Positions 1,348 to 8,755 of a DNA stretch of 64,000 nt are shown here, one piece after another. This DNA is from a phage. The notes under the pieces are model-generated. The model saw only the letters and a program-made list of their open reading frames with translations. It had not been told where the DNA came from and did no database searches. The stretch lies in the sequence record OZ335964.1, one strand, 5' to 3'. The translations under genes and the position numbers were made by a program. How positions within the stretch are numbered: position 1 is the first letter of the stretch; each line of letters opens with the position of its first letter.

Positions 1348-1402
1348 AACAACCTCCAATCAATTTTTTAGAGAGTATAACGGGGATTTCTCCCCGCGTC
1401 AA

Positions 1403-2428
1403 CTAACTTTTTGCGCTATTTACTTCGGCTAAAAGTTCATCAGAAATACGCTTGACCGCCGCAAGTTCTTCTGGTTCTAGGTTTTGTTCTTCCAGATATT
1501 CATAGACCATCTGAATAGTGCTTTTAACTTCAATAACACCTGTTTCCTGTGATGCGCTACTCTCCAGCTTATGGACCACTTTTAGCTTGTGCACAACGGC
1601 CTCTAACGCGCTTTCTAACTTAGTTAACCCATTATCAGCGACCGTTGCGATAAGACGCACACTAAGCCCCTTAAAGCGTTCTACATCGATTTTATCATCT
1701 GACGGGTAAGTAATACGCACATGATAAGTTTTGTCATTCTGAATAAACTCTTTTTTGTGTGTATCGGTATCGAATACCCAAAAACCACGCGGATCGTTTT
1801 CGTCACCCGCCGTTAGTGTGTATGGTGTACCAATATATGTTACGTTACCGCCATCGCTGATAGTATGAAAGTGACCGGAAAACACTTCACGGTATTTCTT
1901 GAGGAAGTCCGCGCTATAACCTTCGGATTTTAGCCCTTTATAGAAATAGTAACCGGACAATTCCCAATGGCCTACACAATATTCGCTGAATGAGTTTTGA
2001 ATAAACTCTAAAATCTCTGATTTATTGTCATCACAAAACCACGGGAACAGATCAAATGATACACCATCAAAGGTAACTGTTTCCGGCTTATCAATGACCT
2101 TAATGCAATCATACTGGCTTAACACTTCACGCGGTGCGTTAGGCTGGATCTTATTGCGCTTAAACATATCATGATTCCCGACCGTGATATAACAAGTAAT
2201 ACCAGCCTCTTCCAGTAACGGGATGACCTTAGTACGGTTAAATTTCATGGTTTCATGAGTAATTGCTTTTCGGCAATCAAACCAATCCCCTGTTTGAATC
2301 CATGTCTTAATATTATGCTCTTTGGAGTATTCAACCGCTTTCTTGATGGTATCAAGAATATACTCATGCACCCACGGATCATCGCCACCGATACCAGTAT
2401 GCAGATCACCTAAAAGCAAAATTTTCAT
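1403..2428 (-). CDS. 47: recombination endonuclease subunit gp47 (Mre11/SbcD-like phosphoesterase)
   Basis: 341 aa; MKILLLGDLHTG...GDWFD...GNHD...GHFH phosphoesterase motifs; near-colinear with remembered T4 gp47; RBS GAGGAAGAG. Confidence 0.9.
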   Translation of the reverse strand: MKILLLGDLHTGIGGDDPWVHEYILDTIKKAVEYSKEHNIKTWIQTGDWFDCRKAITHETMKFNRTKVIPLLEEAGITCYITVGNHDMFKRNKIQPNAPREVLSQYDCIKVIDKPETVTFDGVSFDLFPWFCDDNKSEILEFIQNSFSEYCVGHWELSGYYFYKGLKSEGYSADFLKKYREVFSGHFHTISDGGNVTYIGTPYTLTAGDENDPRGFWVFDTDTHKKEFIQNDKTYHVRITYPSDDKIDVERFKGLSVRLIATVADNGLTKLESALEAVVHKLKVVHKLESSASQETGVIEVKSTIQMVYEYLEEQNLEPEELAAVKRISDELLAEVNSAKS

Positions 2429-2470
2429 AGTCTCTTCCTCTCTTCGTTTTCGATGCTCTCACTATATCAC

Positions 2471-2508
2471 AGAAAAATAAAAAGGGAAACCCCTTTCGGA
2501 GTCTCCCT
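2471..2508 (-). terminator. intrinsic terminator
   Basis: minus-strand hairpin GGGAGAC..GUUUCCC followed by U-run. Confidence 0.55.
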
Positions 2509-2518
2509 TATAAAGCCA

Positions 2519-2806
2519 TTACAGCATACTTAATACCGTTTGCCGTGTACTGACCCACATAGCAGAAAGCAGTTCTGGCGTGTGTGGCTGTTTGTAGATA
2601 TCACGTAACTTTCCGATAGCGTAGATATACGCATCACGGTTATCATCGATGATAGCTTGTTCAGCCCACCGCTTAAGGCGTGCAATCTCTCGCGAGTTCT
2701 TACGCAAGATCTTTTCCGCTTTCTTAGCGGCTTTCGCCTCTAGTTCTGCTTGAACTTTGTCTACTTCATTCACTACAATCTGGTCATGTTGTTCATCGTA
2801 AGTCAT
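2519..2806 (-). CDS. hypothetical protein
   Basis: 95 aa ORF, ATG + AGAAGGAAA RBS; intrinsic terminator downstream. Confidence 0.5.
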   Translation of the reverse strand: MTYDEQHDQIVVNEVDKVQAELEAKAAKKAEKILRKNSREIARLKRWAEQAIIDDNRDAYIYAIGKLRDIYKQPHTPELLSAMWVSTRQTVLSML

Positions 2807-2807
2807 A

Positions 2808-3041
2808 TTATTTTCCTTCTGGGATATAGTCGATGATTAAAGAAAATTCATCTTCTGATACATTATAGCTATGTGAGATTGTACCCGTAAAGACCTCAAG
2901 ATCCGGTGACTTGATATTACACGGATCGATAATCACCGGAACGCCGCAATCTCTCAAAAATAATTTGGCGAAATACGGCACAAGGTCAGTTTCAAACTCT
3001 GCTTCTTCCAGCAAACGGGAAATGTTAATTTTCAATCTCAT
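2808..3041 (-). CDS. hypothetical protein
   Basis: 77 aa ORF with ATG start, tightly packed between gp55 and next gene. Confidence 0.45.
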
Positions 3042-3558
3042 AAAATTGGTCCAGGCTAGGCAATTCCTCGGTCAATACATCTTCAACCTTTGGCGCTTTC
3101 GGTTTATTGACCGATTCCTCGTAGTTGTTGATTTTATCGTAAATGTCCTGTATGAATGCCTCATCCGCAATCTGGCACATATCAGCGTCGCGTTCGTCAT
3201 ATACATGATGCACAAAATATTTGTATTTTGCGGCTGTCGCTGTTCTTTCTTTTTTAATGCGCTGCACAAAAGCATTAAAGCACGCTTGCGTAATGTAAGC
3301 ATGAGGATTTTTATACTTTGTCTCGTCAAAATTAATCAAACCCTTGACCGCCGCTTCGATTCCGTCGTCGATCATTTCTTCGCGCCATGTTTGACTATAG
3401 CCAGAAAAGTTAAAACGCCGTGATAGATTTTTAGAGATTTGCATAATTGCTAGACCGATTTGGTCGCTCATTGGCACTTGCCGACCTTCTGCTGCAATTC
3501 GTTGTTTCCAACGGCAAATTTCTTCGTAAAGCTCTTTATTGTTTACATAATCAGACAC
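3025..3558 (-). CDS. 55: late-transcription sigma factor gp55
   Basis: 177 aa; YVNNKEL...FNFSGY...[29 protein letters not shown] matches remembered T4 gp55; GTG start with GAGGGT RBS. Confidence 0.9.
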
Positions 3559-3598
3559 TTCGCACCCTCGCTATTATTTAGGAAATAACCCTTTCGGG

Positions 3599-5068
3599 CT
3601 ATTCCCCATTACCATTATACTTTCTTTGCTTAGTTATCCACACTCTAACCATTTCTACTGATTCGCCGTCAGACGGATCAAGAGTTTTTCCTTTTTTCTT
3701 CATGCGGTACTTAAATCCGTTAAATCTTGCATTCTCTTGCTCGTTAAAGTCGAACATCTTTTTAAATGATTTTCGCCCTTTACGCTCACCACATTCTAGC
3801 GGAATCATTCGGTCTGTTATTACATTGGCATTAGGTAGAAACGTTTTTAGATAATCCACCAACGCCCAATCAGGAACATATAGATTAACATTCTCCTTGC
3901 TCTCGTTGTCTCTCAGGTTACAACGCAAACATAATTGAAATGCTGGTTCCAGATAATCAGACACATGACGCGCTTTCAAAAACTCGTTTGTCGGGAGATC
4001 ACAACTATTAGCAAGACCTTTTAAAATATCAATCTCCCATCGTTGAGGGTTAAAGCTGAACATCACAGCAACATTTTTATGATGAATGTAAGAGTTAAGA
4101 CCATAAGATCCGTAAGGTATCCGCTCACCAATACCATTTGTGCACGCTTCTCGGTCCCGATTCACGGTATAAATGAAGTCATCACCACATTCATTTTTAA
4201 CCATATCAACAAGACGTTCAAAGGTATTGTTTGTTTCTGACTGGTGACGCGACCATCGTTCAGAGTCCGTCATAAGGATGATGTTAACTCTATCTGTATT
4301 TTTATACTCTTTGAAATATAGTCTGGATTCTAGCGCACTCGGAACAAAATCGCAATTTGCATAGTATCGTAGATACTTCCCACTATATGTATCAAAGAGA
4401 TTTGCACATGCTATCGTAACCTTTTTAAAGTCTCCCCACGTACCGTGTTTGTTATCGTTCAAGAAAACAATTTTCGACCCATTCTTCCGGTGTCCTTCGT
4501 TATGTTTTACCATAACGTTGATTTTCTTCTCTAATAACGCCTCATAAAGCCCTCTAAGCGAAGAATCGATCATATCAGTACCATCCTTCGCACTTTCTAT
4601 CTTTTCTTTGATAGCGGACTTCTCAGAGTCTTTTAGAACTAAGTTCTGTAGGCATTCCGATTCGTCGGCGATTGGTTCGCAATGCTTCGTGATAAGTTCA
4701 AGATTAGACTTAAACGGATACTCATTAAATTCAACCAGTTGAGGAACTTCATCAATGTAAAGAGCATAATCACCAAACATTTTTGAACGTTCCATATTAG
4801 ATAACGCTGTATGTGTAATGAATATCACATCAGCACCGTCTTTAACTGATTGCATTATCGACGCTTGCACTGTCTTAAGGCTTCTTAGTCGTGTGCTATC
4901 AATCAAGACAGCACGACCGCCCATTCTTTTAAACTTATTGTAAGATTGTTCACTTAAAACACGAGATGGCGAAGCAATAACCGCTTTTTCTTTTGTCTCT
5001 AGGACGTGGGAAAGTATAGCATCAGTTTTCCCCGCCGCTGGCAATGCGATTAATGTTTCAATCTTCAT
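3599..5068 (-). CDS. P-loop NTPase of unknown function (Walker A ALPAAGKT, Walker B ALYIDE)
   Basis: 489 aa; Walker A/B motifs read directly; sits after gp55, next to the slot where T4 has a-gt; no family assignment possible without search. Confidence 0.6.
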   Translation of the reverse strand: MKIETLIALPAAGKTDAILSHVLETKEKAVIASPSRVLSEQSYNKFKRMGGRAVLIDSTRLRSLKTVQASIMQSVKDGADVIFITHTALSNMERSKMFGDYALYIDEVPQLVEFNEYPFKSNLELITKHCEPIADESECLQNLVLKDSEKSAIKEKIESAKDGTDMIDSSLRGLYEALLEKKINVMVKHNEGHRKNGSKIVFLNDNKHGTWGDFKKVTIACANLFDTYSGKYLRYYANCDFVPSALESRLYFKEYKNTDRVNIILMTDSERWSRHQSETNNTFERLVDMVKNECGDDFIYTVNRDREACTNGIGERIPYGSYGLNSYIHHKNVAVMFSFNPQRWEIDILKGLANSCDLPTNEFLKARHVSDYLEPAFQLCLRCNLRDNESKENVNLYVPDWALVDYLKTFLPNANVITDRMIPLECGERKGRKSFKKMFDFNEQENARFNGFKYRMKKKGKTLDPSDGESVEMVRVWITKQRKYNGNGE

Positions 5069-5355
5069 TAGAAACCCTTACGTCGTGCTTTCTGGCATTT
5101 CTTGATCATTTTATCAGAAATTTCGCGCTTAGGTGCAATCTCTTTCACACCGAAAGCACTAATGCCAAATTCAGAGAGAATATATTCAACCAACAATTCA
5201 CGCACACGCGCTTTACCGATATTCACGCCGTTATTTTTCAGATATGTCTGGCCTTCGACTTGCATCAGATCTAAATCTGCGTCGGTAATATTGATTTCTT
5301 CCATGCGCCCAAATCGAGAATAAACCATGTGTGCGATTGCATTGTGTACTAACAT
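5068..5355 (-). CDS. hypothetical protein
   Basis: ORF track 5068..5373 begins with TTG; ATG at 5355 preceded by GAGGAA. Confidence 0.45.
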   Translation of the reverse strand: MLVHNAIAHMVYSRFGRMEEINITDADLDLMQVEGQTYLKNNGVNIGKARVRELLVEYILSEFGISAFGVKEIAPKREISDKMIKKCQKARRKGF

Positions 5356-5376
5356 AATATATTCCTCACTCAAGAA

Positions 5377-5535
5377 TTACTTAATGATACTTACTTTACC
5401 AGATCCATGACAATGAGCGCAACACCCATCACCACGCAATCCTGTTCCGTTACAGTGTTTACACTTCTTCAACGGTAAAGCCATTATAGCAAATAAAGCA
5501 ATAATGAATACCGAAACTAAATTCTCAATAATCAT
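5377..5535 (-). CDS. small membrane-anchored protein with two DnaJ-type CxxCxGxG zinc-finger repeats
   Basis: 52 aa not in ORF track: MIIENLVSVFIIALFAIMAL (TM) then CKHCNGTG...CAHCHGSG; start overlaps stop of upstream glutaredoxin. Confidence 0.4.
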   Translation of the reverse strand: MIIENLVSVFIIALFAIMALPLKKCKHCNGTGLRGDGCCAHCHGSGKVSIIK

Positions 5536-5794
5536 AAATCGCCCTCAGTTCTTTATAGCCTCCAATGTGCTCGTTGTCAATGAATATCTGGGGGTATACA
5601 AACCGGAGGCTCTTTGAGTTCAGCCTCCCCGCCAGTTCTTCAATCATATCACGGTCGGGAATAATGTCAACCCCGACCTGCTTGAATACTGGTTTAAGTG
5701 TATACGGAATACCCAGATCATCCAGTAGCTTCATTGCACTAATACAACCATAACAATGATAAGCCTCTTTCGGTATACCGTATATCTCGATCAT
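5525..5794 (-). CDS. nrdH: glutaredoxin-like protein (NrdH-like)
   Basis: 89 aa; CYGC redox motif, YPQIFIDNEHIGGY glutaredoxin signature; position between gp55 and nrdG as in T4. Confidence 0.8.
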   Translation of the reverse strand: MIEIYGIPKEAYHCYGCISAMKLLDDLGIPYTLKPVFKQVGVDIIPDRDMIEELAGRLNSKSLRFVYPQIFIDNEHIGGYKELRAIYDY

Positions 5795-6267
5795 TTCTCA
5801 GCCTTTAATCTTTCTAGTTCTTCTTCCAGTTCCTTGATCCGTTGGTCACGTTCAAAGTCACGCTGTAACTTAGTGGCGAATACTCGTTTAAACTGATTGT
5901 AATCATCGATTTTAAACACTTCTTCTTCGCCATAGCGACGCACAGAAACTTCGTAGTTATTGAAGAATTGTTGCATCATTGCTTCGGATGATAGCTCTGC
6001 TGATACCACTTTAAAATATTGATCTTCTGTAGGCGAAAACCAATTACAAGCATAAAGATAAACCTTTTCATTGTCTGGACACTGGTAAGCCTTACCATCG
6101 ATTTCAATCACAGAAACATATTCAGGTATACTAGATGAATCAATAGCTAAGACTTTAAACGCACGGTCCCCGATAAACTCGGAGATCACACGATTCGCAT
6201 CACTGGTTGCAAATGCTTTACGCGCTTGTTCGTTTTTCCACTGATAGGTCATACCAACAACAAACAT
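5791..6267 (-). CDS. paralog-family protein (GxTYxWK beta domain + C-terminal coiled coil)
   Basis: ATG at 6267 with GAGGA RBS; MFVVGMTYQWKNE...VIEIDGKAY... then EELERLKAEK-type coiled coil. Confidence 0.55.
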   Translation of the reverse strand: MFVVGMTYQWKNEQARKAFATSDANRVISEFIGDRAFKVLAIDSSSIPEYVSVIEIDGKAYQCPDNEKVYLYACNWFSPTEDQYFKVVSAELSSEAMMQQFFNNYEVSVRRYGEEEVFKIDDYNQFKRVFATKLQRDFERDQRIKELEEELERLKAEK

Positions 6268-6268
6268 A

Positions 6269-7093
6269 TTACCATCCTCGCTCTTTACCAATCAAAAATT
6301 CAACTTCACGACGTTTAATGTCTTCTTGAAGGTCTTTAATCTTCTGGCGATCTTGCATGATTTCATCCATCTTGTCAAGTGCCGCAATGAAATCATCGAA
6401 ACGTTCAAAGGTTTTACCTTCATTTGCTTCGCCAAATTTAACCATTGTCAGTCCGTAACGACTACTAAACAGACGTTTCAACTGTCCAACGATCTTAGAA
6501 TCAGTGGTTATAACTTCCAATTCTTCTACTTCACGAAAGAATTTTCTATCAGAATCAATAAACCAGCTAGTTCCTTTATGGTCTCTATCTTCGGTTGCGC
6601 TCATTAGAGTATGGTCTTTACCATCAATTTCAATTACATCAATTTGCCCACATGGACTAACATTTTTAACAGTAAAAGGTCTATAATTTATTGCTCGTGC
6701 AATAACATAATTAAGGTTAGATACGTTTTCAGCATAATGGCAGAAGTCGGTCATAGCATTCGCATCTTTCCAAGTATAAGTTTTACCAACTTCCCATTTC
6801 TGGGGAACTTCTTCAACTTCACGAAAGAATTTTCGATCGAATGGACTAAAGAAATATGTTGCAGTCCAAATGTCTTTTCCTGTAGCAGTTTTCGCCGTAT
6901 GATAAACACCGTCTAGCTCTATTGCATTAATCCAACCGTTACCCTCGATCTCGATGATGGTAAATGGCTTGTCACCAATAGCTGCACTAATATCGCTGTT
7001 AAGTGGAGAAAGAACACCTTCTCCGTTAGTAATAAACTCAGTTTTAGCGTTTTCATCTTTCCAAGTGTAAGTTTTACCAATTTCCCATTTCAT
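6269..7093 (-). CDS. paralog-family protein with two tandem KWEVGKTYTWKD...DRKFFREVEE domains
   Basis: 274 aa; the ~90 aa domain occurs twice in this one protein. Confidence 0.6.
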   Translation of the reverse strand: MKWEIGKTYTWKDENAKTEFITNGEGVLSPLNSDISAAIGDKPFTIIEIEGNGWINAIELDGVYHTAKTATGKDIWTATYFFSPFDRKFFREVEEVPQKWEVGKTYTWKDANAMTDFCHYAENVSNLNYVIARAINYRPFTVKNVSPCGQIDVIEIDGKDHTLMSATEDRDHKGTSWFIDSDRKFFREVEELEVITTDSKIVGQLKRLFSSRYGLTMVKFGEANEGKTFERFDDFIAALDKMDEIMQDRQKIKDLQEDIKRREVEFLIGKERGW

Positions 7094-7105
7094 AATATAT
7101 TCCCC

Positions 7106-7570
7106 TTAACCGATTTTATCAAGTTCGTTTAATGCTTTCTCTGCTTCCTGTATAGCTTGCACCCTTTCCGGCATTTTGTCAAGAAAATCTTTCAACTCTT
7201 CAAAACTGGAGATATGACGCAAGGCGTTAGCACCGATAGCCGCATGTGATTTGCATTCAAAGCGAATTTTATAATTATCCATCGCCAACTTGAGAAGATC
7301 AATTAGTTTAGATTCTTCTGGAATACTAATTTCTTCAAATCTGCTACGGTCGTGATCCAGAAACCAACAAGATAGACCTACATCGGTTGAACTCATATAA
7401 GTTCCATCATGAAGATATACAGATCGCACGTATCCTTTTTTCGCATCAACCGACGCAACTTTAAACGGTAATCGCAGATATTTCAAATAATCAACATCAT
7501 ACCATTTAAAAAATTGGTTTGCATCTTTTACATCTTTCCACGCATAGGTCTTACCAACTTCCCATTTCAT
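7106..7570 (-). CDS. paralog-family protein (single KWEVGKTY domain)
   Basis: ORF track 7106..7585; homologous start MKWEVGK at 7570. Confidence 0.55.
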   Translation of the reverse strand: MKWEVGKTYAWKDVKDANQFFKWYDVDYLKYLRLPFKVASVDAKKGYVRSVYLHDGTYMSSTDVGLSCWFLDHDRSRFEEISIPEESKLIDLLKLAMDNYKIRFECKSHAAIGANALRHISSFEELKDFLDKMPERVQAIQEAEKALNELDKIG

Positions 7571-7574
7571 AATA

Positions 7575-8099
7575 TCATCTCTCATTTTTGATACGTGATT
7601 CTAATTGGATCATACGGTCTCGCGTTTGCTTGTATTCACGGATATTGCCGATCCGGCTAGGCATACCATCAAGCACGCTCTTAATCCCTTCTAGGGTAGT
7701 GATTTTAGCAATGCTATTATGTAACCCCATCTTATCGATCAACTGAATGTCGTAGGCTTCCATAAGCAGACCCAGACGTTCTAAAGTTAGGTCTTCTTTT
7801 TCTTCCGATTCTGGAATCTTAGGTTCAATAGTAACTTCGGTAAAGAAACGACGCTCACCAGCCCAAAACCACACACCGGAAAAGCCAATAGGGGATTCTT
7901 TTAACGTCATAGAGTCGTAACCACTGCCGATAATAGTAATTTCTCTAACATCACCATCATCGTCAATGTCTTCTACCCTAAACGGGCGACCAGCCAACAA
8001 GTCCACAATACGTCTGTTAATAGACGACGAAAATTTAGTCAGTTCGGCTTTCGACGCTTCGCATTCAATCTTGTAAGTTTTACCAACTTCCCATTCCAT
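7575..8099 (-). CDS. paralog-family protein (MEWEVGKTY domain)
   Basis: ORF track starts with GTG at 8108; ATG at 8099 with GAGGTGA RBS. Confidence 0.55.
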   Translation of the reverse strand: MEWEVGKTYKIECEASKAELTKFSSSINRRIVDLLAGRPFRVEDIDDDGDVREITIIGSGYDSMTLKESPIGFSGVWFWAGERRFFTEVTIEPKIPESEEKEDLTLERLGLLMEAYDIQLIDKMGLHNSIAKITTLEGIKSVLDGMPSRIGNIREYKQTRDRMIQLESRIKNER

Positions 8100-8109
8100 A
8101 ATAATCACC

Positions 8110-8613
8110 TCAAATAATTTTCACTGGAATACTATTAACAATCTTGTATTGTACTTGATTGTCAGACCCCCGCCACGGCTTCTTCGTTGGCATATCTTTA
8201 ATATAACGCCCATCGATGAACATGTCAACTGATTCTACAATTTTTCTTTGCTCATCATTCAATTGGTCAAGGGTATAACCGGACCATAGCCAAATATCTT
8301 TATTTGGCATCCATGATTTTACCTCATCGATGATCCGCTGTACACCCTTTAAATTGCGTTTATACAGTGGATCACCACCTAAGAATGTTAGCCCCTGAAT
8401 AAAATCAGGTCTAAGCAGATCCAGAATCAATCCCATTGTATCATCGGTGAATGGTTCCCCGTTCTTAGGATTGAGTAGGCTAGCATTAAAGCAACCATCA
8501 CATGCGTGTGAACATCCGGTAACGTAAAGGGAGACTCTCACTCCCTCACCGTTAACCATATCACAATCTTTAATATCGGCATAGCGTAGTTTGCCGTATG
8601 TATCAGAACTCAT
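8110..8613 (-). CDS. nrdG: anaerobic ribonucleotide reductase activating protein NrdG (radical SAM)
   Basis: CSHACDGC radical-SAM cysteine motif; size and position as T4 NrdG. Confidence 0.85.
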   Translation of the reverse strand: MSSDTYGKLRYADIKDCDMVNGEGVRVSLYVTGCSHACDGCFNASLLNPKNGEPFTDDTMGLILDLLRPDFIQGLTFLGGDPLYKRNLKGVQRIIDEVKSWMPNKDIWLWSGYTLDQLNDEQRKIVESVDMFIDGRYIKDMPTKKPWRGSDNQVQYKIVNSIPVKII

Positions 8614-8755
8614 ATTCAATTACCCCGAACTCGTTTACAATCTGCGCTTTATAGTAACCACCGCGAGATGCCAATAGATAAGCTGGGCTTAGGTATTCGC
8701 ATTCACGGATTTCTACTTGTGCGTTTTCAGTTTCCCAAATCAGTAAAGTCCACAT
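8603..8755 (-). CDS. small hypothetical protein (promoter-stem-loop cassette ORF)
   Basis: ORF track 8603..8830 overlaps the promoter; ATG at 8755 with AGGAGAATCAAAT leader. Confidence 0.35.
   Translation of the reverse strand: MWTLLIWETENAQVEIRECEYLSPAYLLASRGGYYKAQIVNEFGVIEYEF

Follow-up and report, generated by a model that had tools for sequence, protein, structure and literature searches.

We find that a 64,000-nucleotide stretch of phage DNA (sequence record OZ335964.1; hereafter the window) carries, next to the gene for the late sigma factor gp55, an open reading frame (ORF) for a conserved 489-residue protein that is probably an active ATPase of the superfamily 2 (SF2) helicase type. 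We propose, at a probability of roughly 0.6, that this protein is an early-expressed accessory SF2 DNA helicase or translocase that serves in replication, recombination or repair. Judged by sequence identity (about 98% to RB49, JSE and SAP), the window is a Krischvirus, a T4-type phage like RB49. Its region 1400-8700 is 96-98.4% identical over the full length to 59 Krischvirus genomes (RB49, JSE, Phi1, SAP and TB34 among them). The best match of the window is SAP (OZ034687), and the window is 98.4% identical to both SAP and TB34 (OX001802).

Motifs, predicted fold and C-terminal tail

An earlier note on this DNA had read the 489-residue protein as a helicase- or translocase-like P-loop NTPase with a Walker A motif (ALPAAGKT) and a Walker B motif (ALYIDE), and could not place it in a family. 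Both motifs are present (residues 8-15 and 102-109), and Pfam and fold searches uphold the P-loop reading. The protein can, however, be placed: it belongs to PHROG 2467, a family listed as of unknown function that it matches over its full length (expectation value, E, 2.7e-175), and its predicted fold is of the SF2 type, apparently nearest to XPD/DinG. One GenBank record already gives it the name "putative helicase". Using tblastn, we detect the protein in 244 phage records, and a profile search of 1.84 billion cluster representatives returns 1353 relatives at E values up to 1e-3. Since homologs extend over the full length in both sets, the ORF is not a chance occurrence.

The pattern of conservation is that of an enzyme. 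Among T4-like phages (alignment of 29 homologs), the family is marked by PAAGKT, AS-x-SR-x-LS-x-QS, VIFITH-x-AL, LYIDEVP, TIA-x-AN, FIYT-x-N-x-x-R, PYNPHGLN-x-Y and YLEPAFQLC-x-R-x-x-IR. The segment ASPSRVLSEQS, which is like motif Ia, lines up with PTRELxxQ of DEAD-box chains. Alignments of 72 and of 89 relatives only about 20% identical to the protein show eight residues without any variation: K14, D106, E107, G323, N325, Q378, R382 and R386. In comparison with RB49, 14 codons differ, 12 of them synonymously and 2 non-synonymously. The invariant motif residues together with the bias toward synonymous codon changes form the pattern expected of an active ATPase under purifying selection.

Comparisons of sequence with known families are consistent with this assignment and reach mainly the first half of the protein. 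The Pfam DEAD model matches residues 11-130 at E 3.4e-6 and barely passes its threshold (27.3 bits against a cut-off of 26); among 72 relatives, 53 match DEAD and 30 match ResIII. The single 489-residue sequence matched none of the solved structures, and family profiles searched against solved chains reached only the N-terminal lobe of DEAD-box proteins, PriA, Mfd, UvrB and reverse gyrase. For this ORF and its two small upstream neighbours, NCBIfam and PADLOC gave nothing useful, PADLOC returning one marginal match to an unrelated model.

Structure prediction, which the earlier note had suggested, gave a confident model of SF2 helicase type. The AlphaFold2 model, built on the alignment of 29 homologs (predicted local distance difference test, pLDDT, 87.7; predicted template modelling score, pTM, 0.76), has two alpha/beta RecA-like lobes, both of which align with SF2 helicases. 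When the model was compared with the PDB by Foldseek, DinG, CasDinG and XPD ranked highest (E about 6e-9), and the structural neighbours include the defence helicases CasDinG, Hna and DdmD. According to this model, the 489-residue protein is an SF2 helicase with an XPD/DinG-like fold, which we do not count as a member of the XPD/DinG family. The assignment to this fold rests on the predicted structure, since sequence profiles reach only the generic RecA lobe 1 of SF2 proteins.

The C-terminal tail, which the model folds into helices at residues 443-458 and 468-484, offers a clue to what the motor may bind. The tail aligns with the C-terminal helix-turn-helix (HTH) of relatives that are 480-500 residues long, and those relatives have sub-threshold matches to Pfam HTH_23, HTH_7, HTH_29 and Sigma70_r4 at residues of about 440-496. 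When the family is aligned, W477, which does not vary among the T4-like proteins, lines up with the recognition-helix tryptophan of the HTH relatives. The tail of the T4-like protein itself gives no HTH match. We infer that the tail is probably a DNA-binding module derived from an HTH.

Several observations weigh against an XPD/DinG-like accessory DNA helicase. None of the 72 relatives matches Pfam DEAD_2 or Helicase_C_2 at E values up to 0.05. The canonical motif VI is GRxxR, and here the spacing from R382 to R386 is i+4 and not i+3. RB49-type phages are reported to encode the T4 helicases gp41, Dda and UvsW too, with no evident need for a fourth. A literature search by locus tags and accessions found no paper on any member of the family, and the promoter and terminator sites described below are consensus matches only.

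Gene neighbourhood, distribution and expression

The earlier note had grouped the 489-residue ORF with the two small ORFs upstream of it (95 and 52 residues) as one module beside the slot of the T4 alpha-glucosyltransferase gene a-gt. All three ORFs exist and, like every gene in the examined part of the window, lie on the minus strand (Table 1). GC content stays at about 0.40 and does not shift at the three-ORF locus. The ORFs do not form a self-contained module, because the 95-residue ORF is the ortholog of T4 gp55.2 and the 52-residue ORF is seen, among 14 loci searched, in only the two from Krischvirus. Nor does the ATPase gene lie beside the a-gt slot: gp55 intervenes, and the gene takes the place that 55.1 has in T4. 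The T4 map reads 47, 47.1, a-gt, mobB, a-gt.2 to a-gt.5, 55, 55.1, 55.2 ... nrdH. Compared with this map, as the earlier note had observed, a-gt is missing between gp47 and gp55, and the gap holds just two small ORFs, which we identify as homologs of a-gt.4 and a-gt.5. That RB49 lacks a-gt was already known. We also considered whether the helicase might be an expanded T4 gp55.1 and rejected this, given that it has no similarity to the 87-residue gp55.1.

Table 1. Features at and around the 489-residue gene, in order of position in the window.
Feature	Position	Strand	Basis or remark
gp47	1403-2428	-	neighbour gene
Terminator-like hairpin, 12 bp and T run, after a-gt.4	2482-2509	-	putative end of transcription unit
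a-gt.4 homolog	2519-2806	-	Pfam DUF2654; RB49 and T4 annotation
a-gt.5 homolog	2808-3041	-	Pfam DUF5491; RB49 and T4 annotation
gp55, late sigma factor, directly downstream of helicase gene	3025-3558	-	PHROG 234, E 4.8e-63; RB49 annotation
489-residue SF2 helicase-like ATPase, RB49p044 ortholog, PHROG 2467	3599-5068	-	
Basic C-terminal helical tail, residues 433-489	3602-3772	-	14 K/R against 8 D/E; invariant W477
Motif VI-like YLEPAFQLCLRCNLR	3911-3955	-	Q378, R382, R386 invariant in wide family
Motif V-like YGSYGLNSY (consensus PYNPHGLNxY)	4088-4114	-	G323, N325 invariant in wide family
Insertion of about 100 residues (113-215), motif II to motif III-like TIACANL	4424-4732	-	helical hairpin 147-180
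Motif II/Walker B ALYIDEVP, residues 102-109	4742-4765	-	D106, E107 invariant in wide family
Motif Ia-like ASPSRVLSEQS, residues 32-42	4943-4975	-	S33, L38, S42 invariant in T4-like family
Motif I/Walker A ALPAAGKT, residues 8-15	5024-5047	-	K14 invariant in 89 relatives about 20% identical
T4 gp55.2 ortholog, 95 residues from ATG	5068-5355	-	TAA stop overlaps helicase ATG (TAATG)
52-residue peptide, RB49p046 ortholog, transmembrane segment and two CxxCxGxG	5377-5535	-	PHROG 3931, E 4e-10
Sigma-70-type promoter-like site TTGACA-16-TATGAT with TG	5643-5670	-	consensus scan 11/12; not evidence of function

The helicase gene occurs in many T4-like phages. Krischvirus copies of the protein are at least 98% identical, and proteins 35-42% identical are encoded by T4-like phages of Erwinia, Proteus, Serratia, Cronobacter, Aeromonas, Citrobacter, Klebsiella and Enterobacter and by RB43/RB16; remoter tblastn matches lie in the jumbo phage Atu_ph07 and in a Pseudoalteromonas phage. 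Tblastn matches no T-even phage. The protein is thus not an ortholog of a T4-core replication or packaging ATPase, the case that the earlier note had named as one that would refute its reading, and, by the same result, not an ortholog of UvsW. T-even phages carry the unrelated 87-residue gene 55.1 in the helicase slot. The order nrdH...55.2-helicase-55-a-gt.5-a-gt.4-47-46 is found in Krischvirus, Bragavirus, Ceceduovirus, Cronobacter phage S13, Serratia phage Muldoon and Aeromonas phage Aes012. Of this order, RB43 has the part from nrdH through 55.2 to the helicase, and its next gene is 34 (tail fibre), not 55. A scan of bacterial and archaeal genomes found only two close copies, both in a T4-like neighbourhood (nrdH, plus 55.2 or gene 55), which we take to be phage DNA in assemblies; plasmids gave only two weak matches, to Sinorhizobium megaplasmids. 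Among T4-like phages other than the T-evens, the helicase is an accessory gene, inherited with the phage backbone.

In 6 of 8 lineages examined, a 55.2 ortholog abuts or overlaps the start of the helicase gene. By its sequence and position, the 95-residue ORF of the window is the ortholog of T4 gp55.2: the two proteins are 42% identical (BLASTP, E 7e-20), the ORF matches Pfam DUF7570 at E 1.4e-28 and, like the T4 gene, it lies upstream of gene 55. Homologs occur in 1093 phage records, including Tequatrovirus. Read from an upstream TTG at 5373, the ORF would encode 101 residues; the ATG at 5355 has GAGG 8 nt before it and agrees with the RB49 annotation. T4 gp55.2 inhibits E. coli topoisomerase I, an activity that has been demonstrated for the T4 protein only and not for the RB49-type ortholog (PMC4396842). 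In Aeromonas phages of the Aes012 type (locus L004, 4429-5004), the stop codon that runs into the start of the helicase belongs to a gene whose annotation is a DprA-like DNA recombination mediator and not 55.2. This neighbour is a second hint that links the helicase to DNA recombination.

Signals around these genes suggest how they may be expressed. The promoter-like site lies inside nrdH, upstream of the three ORFs, and no late promoter (TATAAATA) was found within 20 kb of the genes. We infer from these sites that the 52-residue ORF, 55.2, the helicase, 55, a-gt.5 and a-gt.4 may form one early transcription unit. The TAATG overlap of stop and start suggests that translation of the helicase is coupled to that of gp55.2. 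Our proposal for the 489-residue protein would then run as follows. The helicase would be transcribed early from the sigma-70-type promoter, in one unit with gp55.2, gp55, a-gt.5 and a-gt.4, and its translation would probably be coupled to gp55.2. Driven by ATP, the protein would travel on nucleic acid or unwind it, with DNA as the likeliest substrate, and would act on intermediates of phage replication, recombination or repair. A possible task is the clearing of R-loops or other obstacles, as DinG does.

The 52-residue peptide begins with a hydrophobic stretch (residues 1-21; Kyte-Doolittle about 2.4), followed by CKHCNGTG and CAHCHGSG. Its score against Pfam DnaJ_CXXCXGXG (14.6 bits) is below the cut-off of 32.7, and NCBIfam DnaJ is far below its own. 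Going by these motifs, the peptide would be a minimal membrane-anchored zinc knuckle of the DnaJ type. Its two Krischvirus loci were found among 14 loci searched, and in the window the ORF overlaps the end of nrdH by 11 nt. Further upstream on the minus strand, between nrdH and nrdG (5791-8108), lie four consecutive ORFs of 166, 274, 159 and 177 residues. They hold five copies of a domain of about 90 residues, two of them in the 274-residue ORF, that are 25-35% identical to the first copy; the domain starts with (M/Q)KWEVGKTYxWKD, ends with DRxFFxEV and has no Pfam match. At the other end of the locus, RB49 (locus L001, 4045-4599) has an HNH endonuclease gene between 47 and a-gt.4. The HNH gene is missing from the window, where positions 2429-2518 hold only the intergenic terminator-like hairpin; the HNH homing endonuclease gene that T4 has between 47 and a-gt.4, mobB, is a different one.

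A wider family with long relatives

The wider family to which the 489-residue protein belongs comprises more than 1,300 clusters at 50% identity. About one third of the 150 best relatives are 750-850 residues long and carry a C-terminal extension; these long relatives include P0048, P0074, P0194 and P0225 and those at loci L007-L009, L015-L017 and L019-L024. The extension follows the pattern LDFD/E-G ... R-x-R-V-x-I-P ... G-x-D-x-x-K ... FYLP, then a helical end, and so carries a DxD/E...R...D pattern. Pfam PriCT_1 is matched by 1 of 20 long relatives (E 1.3e-3). In an AlphaFold model of P0048 (pLDDT 85.7), the conserved residues of the extension are surrounded by elements in the order beta-alpha-beta-beta-alpha-beta. 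This layout may resemble the core of archaeo-eukaryotic primases. The domain with the DxD/E...R...D pattern matched nothing in Pfam or PADLOC and, by profile, nothing in the PDB, and tblastn of the extension matched nothing in phages. Based on the motifs and the predicted secondary structure, the extension may be a primase of the archaeo-eukaryotic type that follows the helicase.

The settings of the long forms look like those of integrative mobile elements. One long-form gene directly follows a tyrosine integrase gene and an HTH_17 (AlpA-type) gene, and another comes after an HTH_17 gene and has an AAA_25 gene close by. Other long forms lie near serine resolvases, an AAA_25 ATPase, a PolB-type exonuclease or a DDE transposase, and one relative is found in a Bradyrhizobium chromosome, adjoining a gene for an ATP-dependent DNA ligase. 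PADLOC assigned no defence family among the proteins of the wider family. Such surroundings point to a protein that serves to replicate mobile elements. It is conceivable, if unlikely, that the T4-like protein represents, on the phage side, a so far unrecognised family of replication proteins of mobile elements, with an SF2 core that is XPD/DinG-like and has no iron-sulfur cluster. In the forms from integrative elements, the primase-like domain and the PriCT-like end would come after the helicase, in reverse of the usual order of primase then helicase, and the short forms would end in an HTH that recognises a site. If this were true, T4-like phages outside the T-evens would carry a DNA-site-specific initiator or loader helicase that T4 does not have. 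The wider family may be a common replication module of mobile elements, with many members in integrative elements.

Alternative explanations and known systems

The helicase has little to say about the chemistry of the phage DNA. The earlier note had tied the ATPase to the a-gt slot and to a lack of glucosylation, a link that is not supported, given the 55.1 position and the presence of the gene in Aeromonas phages 44RR and 25. Gene 42 is listed for Aeromonas phages 44RR, 31 and 25, and not for RB49, in a published comparison (Table 4 of PMC2993671). Since gene 42 and the helicase occur together in 44RR and 25, the helicase is not tied to unmodified DNA or to cytosine modification, and we rejected a strict anticorrelation between helicase and hydroxymethylcytosine (PMC2993671). 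The note had also concluded from the missing a-gt that the DNA is not alpha-glucosylated. This fits the published unmodified cytosine of RB49 (PMC4041780; PMC2993671), which is reported to be without hydroxymethylase and beta-glucosyltransferase and is cut by enzymes that modified cytosine blocks (PMC4041780). The step from a missing a-gt to DNA chemistry has, however, become less safe, because a 2026 study reports fully modified, glucosylated cytosines in Krischvirus SAP (PMC13390438). The same study reports canonical cytosine in TB34, which is 99.96% identical to SAP, and detected no homologs of hydroxymethylases or glucosyltransferases in Krischvirus genomes (PMC13390438). The helicase does not explain the difference in cytosine between SAP and TB34, as both carry it. 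It has no demonstrable connection with cytosine modification and is uninformative on glucosylation.

Four other roles for the 489-residue protein deserve weighing against that of an accessory DNA helicase. The protein might be a replication-initiator helicase, with a tail that recognises a phage site such as an origin and a motor that opens it; it would then be similar to herpesvirus UL9 and to the replicases of integrative mobile elements, which may be the source of the gene. The C-terminal HTH of the short relatives and the alignment of W477 with their recognition-helix tryptophan point this way, as do the long relatives, which have a primase-like domain with a PriCT-like end and sit beside integrase and HTH_17 or resolvase and AAA_25 genes, where a mobile-element replicase usually lies. 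One relative has a weak match to Pfam Herpes_ori_bp (E 1.4e-3), and a replication origin-binding protein of an algal virus is among the BFVD matches. The Herpes_ori_bp match, however, is limited to the generic ATPase lobe, the T4-like tail itself gives no HTH match, and the primase label of the long forms is drawn from motifs and predicted secondary structure. T4, which is not known to use an initiator protein, starts replication from R-loops and recombination intermediates, and overall we consider an initiator rather unlikely. A role in transcription or mRNA metabolism, as an RNA helicase or RNA-protein remodeller linked to gp55, would account for the best profile matches, which are to DEAD-box proteins (Pfam DEAD, and Mss116 and DDX42 at E 1e-7 to 1e-6), and for the adjacency to gene 55 that most lineages keep. 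Those profile matches are confined to the generic RecA1 lobe, whereas the structural matches that span most of the protein are to DNA helicases. The SAT of motif III is missing, the DEAD-box C-terminal domain is matched by only 2 of 72 relatives (E 0.025), and in RB43 the gene after the helicase is 34 and not 55; we regard this role as very improbable.

The protein could also serve in counter-defence or in competition between phages, for instance by stripping off or out-competing host restriction or defence complexes on phage DNA, which would benefit phages whose DNA is little modified or not modified at all. In keeping with this idea, it is encoded by an accessory gene that is missing in the T-evens, with their glucosylated hydroxymethylcytosine, and present in RB49- and RB43-types with ordinary cytosine (PMC4041780; PMC2993671), the T4 form of the neighbouring gp55.2 acts on a host enzyme (PMC4396842), and CasDinG, Hna and DdmD are among its structural neighbours. 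Yet the gene is also found in the gene-42-positive phages 44RR and 25 (PMC2993671), and it holds a stable place in a conserved gene order across genera, unlike typical anti-defence genes, which are exchanged fast. Most known inhibitors are small, whereas this protein has 489 residues and fully conserved catalytic motifs, and the sole PADLOC match was marginal and to an unrelated model. These points leave counter-defence quite improbable. That the protein belongs to an otherwise unrecognised Krischvirus pathway of DNA modification seems hardly credible: the glucosylated cytosines of SAP do call for enzymes whose homologs were not detected (PMC13390438), but TB34 has the same gene and canonical cytosine (PMC13390438), the fold shows nothing transferase-like or nucleotide-modifying, and the gene is widespread in phages of other DNA chemistries.

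The 489-residue protein marks a gap in the annotation of many phages. Almost all of about 240 sequenced T4-like phage genomes, several therapy candidates among them, list it as a "hypothetical protein", and the label SF2 helicase-like ATPase, with a fold of the XPD/DinG type, is now warranted. If its activity is confirmed, it would be a fourth type of helicase in the T4-like replication and repair toolkit and would mark a clear difference between T-evens and other T4-like phages.

Among known systems, the predicted fold appears most like the XPD/Rad3/DinG family of SF2 DNA helicases, above all its forms with no iron-sulfur cluster, such as CasDinG of CRISPR type IV. The model, like XPD/DinG, has two RecA lobes, and its lobe 1 is interrupted by a large insertion after motif II and before motif III, the place where the Arch domain of XPD/DinG is inserted. 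They also have in common the motif order I, Ia, Ib, II and III-like (TIACANL), followed by IV-like (FIYTxN), V-like (HGLN) and VI-like (QxxxRxxxR) motifs. The 489-residue protein differs in having DEVP and not DEAH, in its extra basic C-terminal tail, and in the lack of an iron-sulfur domain: residues 1-129 hold no cysteine, and C130 and C380 are its only family-invariant cysteines. With motifs Ia and II only about 60 residues apart, no vestige of such a domain is apparent. CasDinG and some other accepted members of XPD/DinG are likewise without an iron-sulfur cluster. No solved XPD/DinG chain is among the best 60 HMMER profile matches. T4 UvsW is a weaker structural match than XPD/DinG and is encoded at another genomic position. 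The architecture of a motor plus a C-terminal DNA-binding module is like that of UL9 (Herpes_ori_bp) and the replicases of mobile elements; the difference from UL9 is that only one relative has a weak Herpes_ori_bp match, confined to the ATPase lobe. Finally, the long relatives are like P4 alpha-type replicases in adding a primase-like domain and in holding the integrase-AlpA-replicase position. P4 alpha has an SF3 helicase and its primase at the N-terminus, whereas in the long relatives the helicase comes before the primase-like domain.

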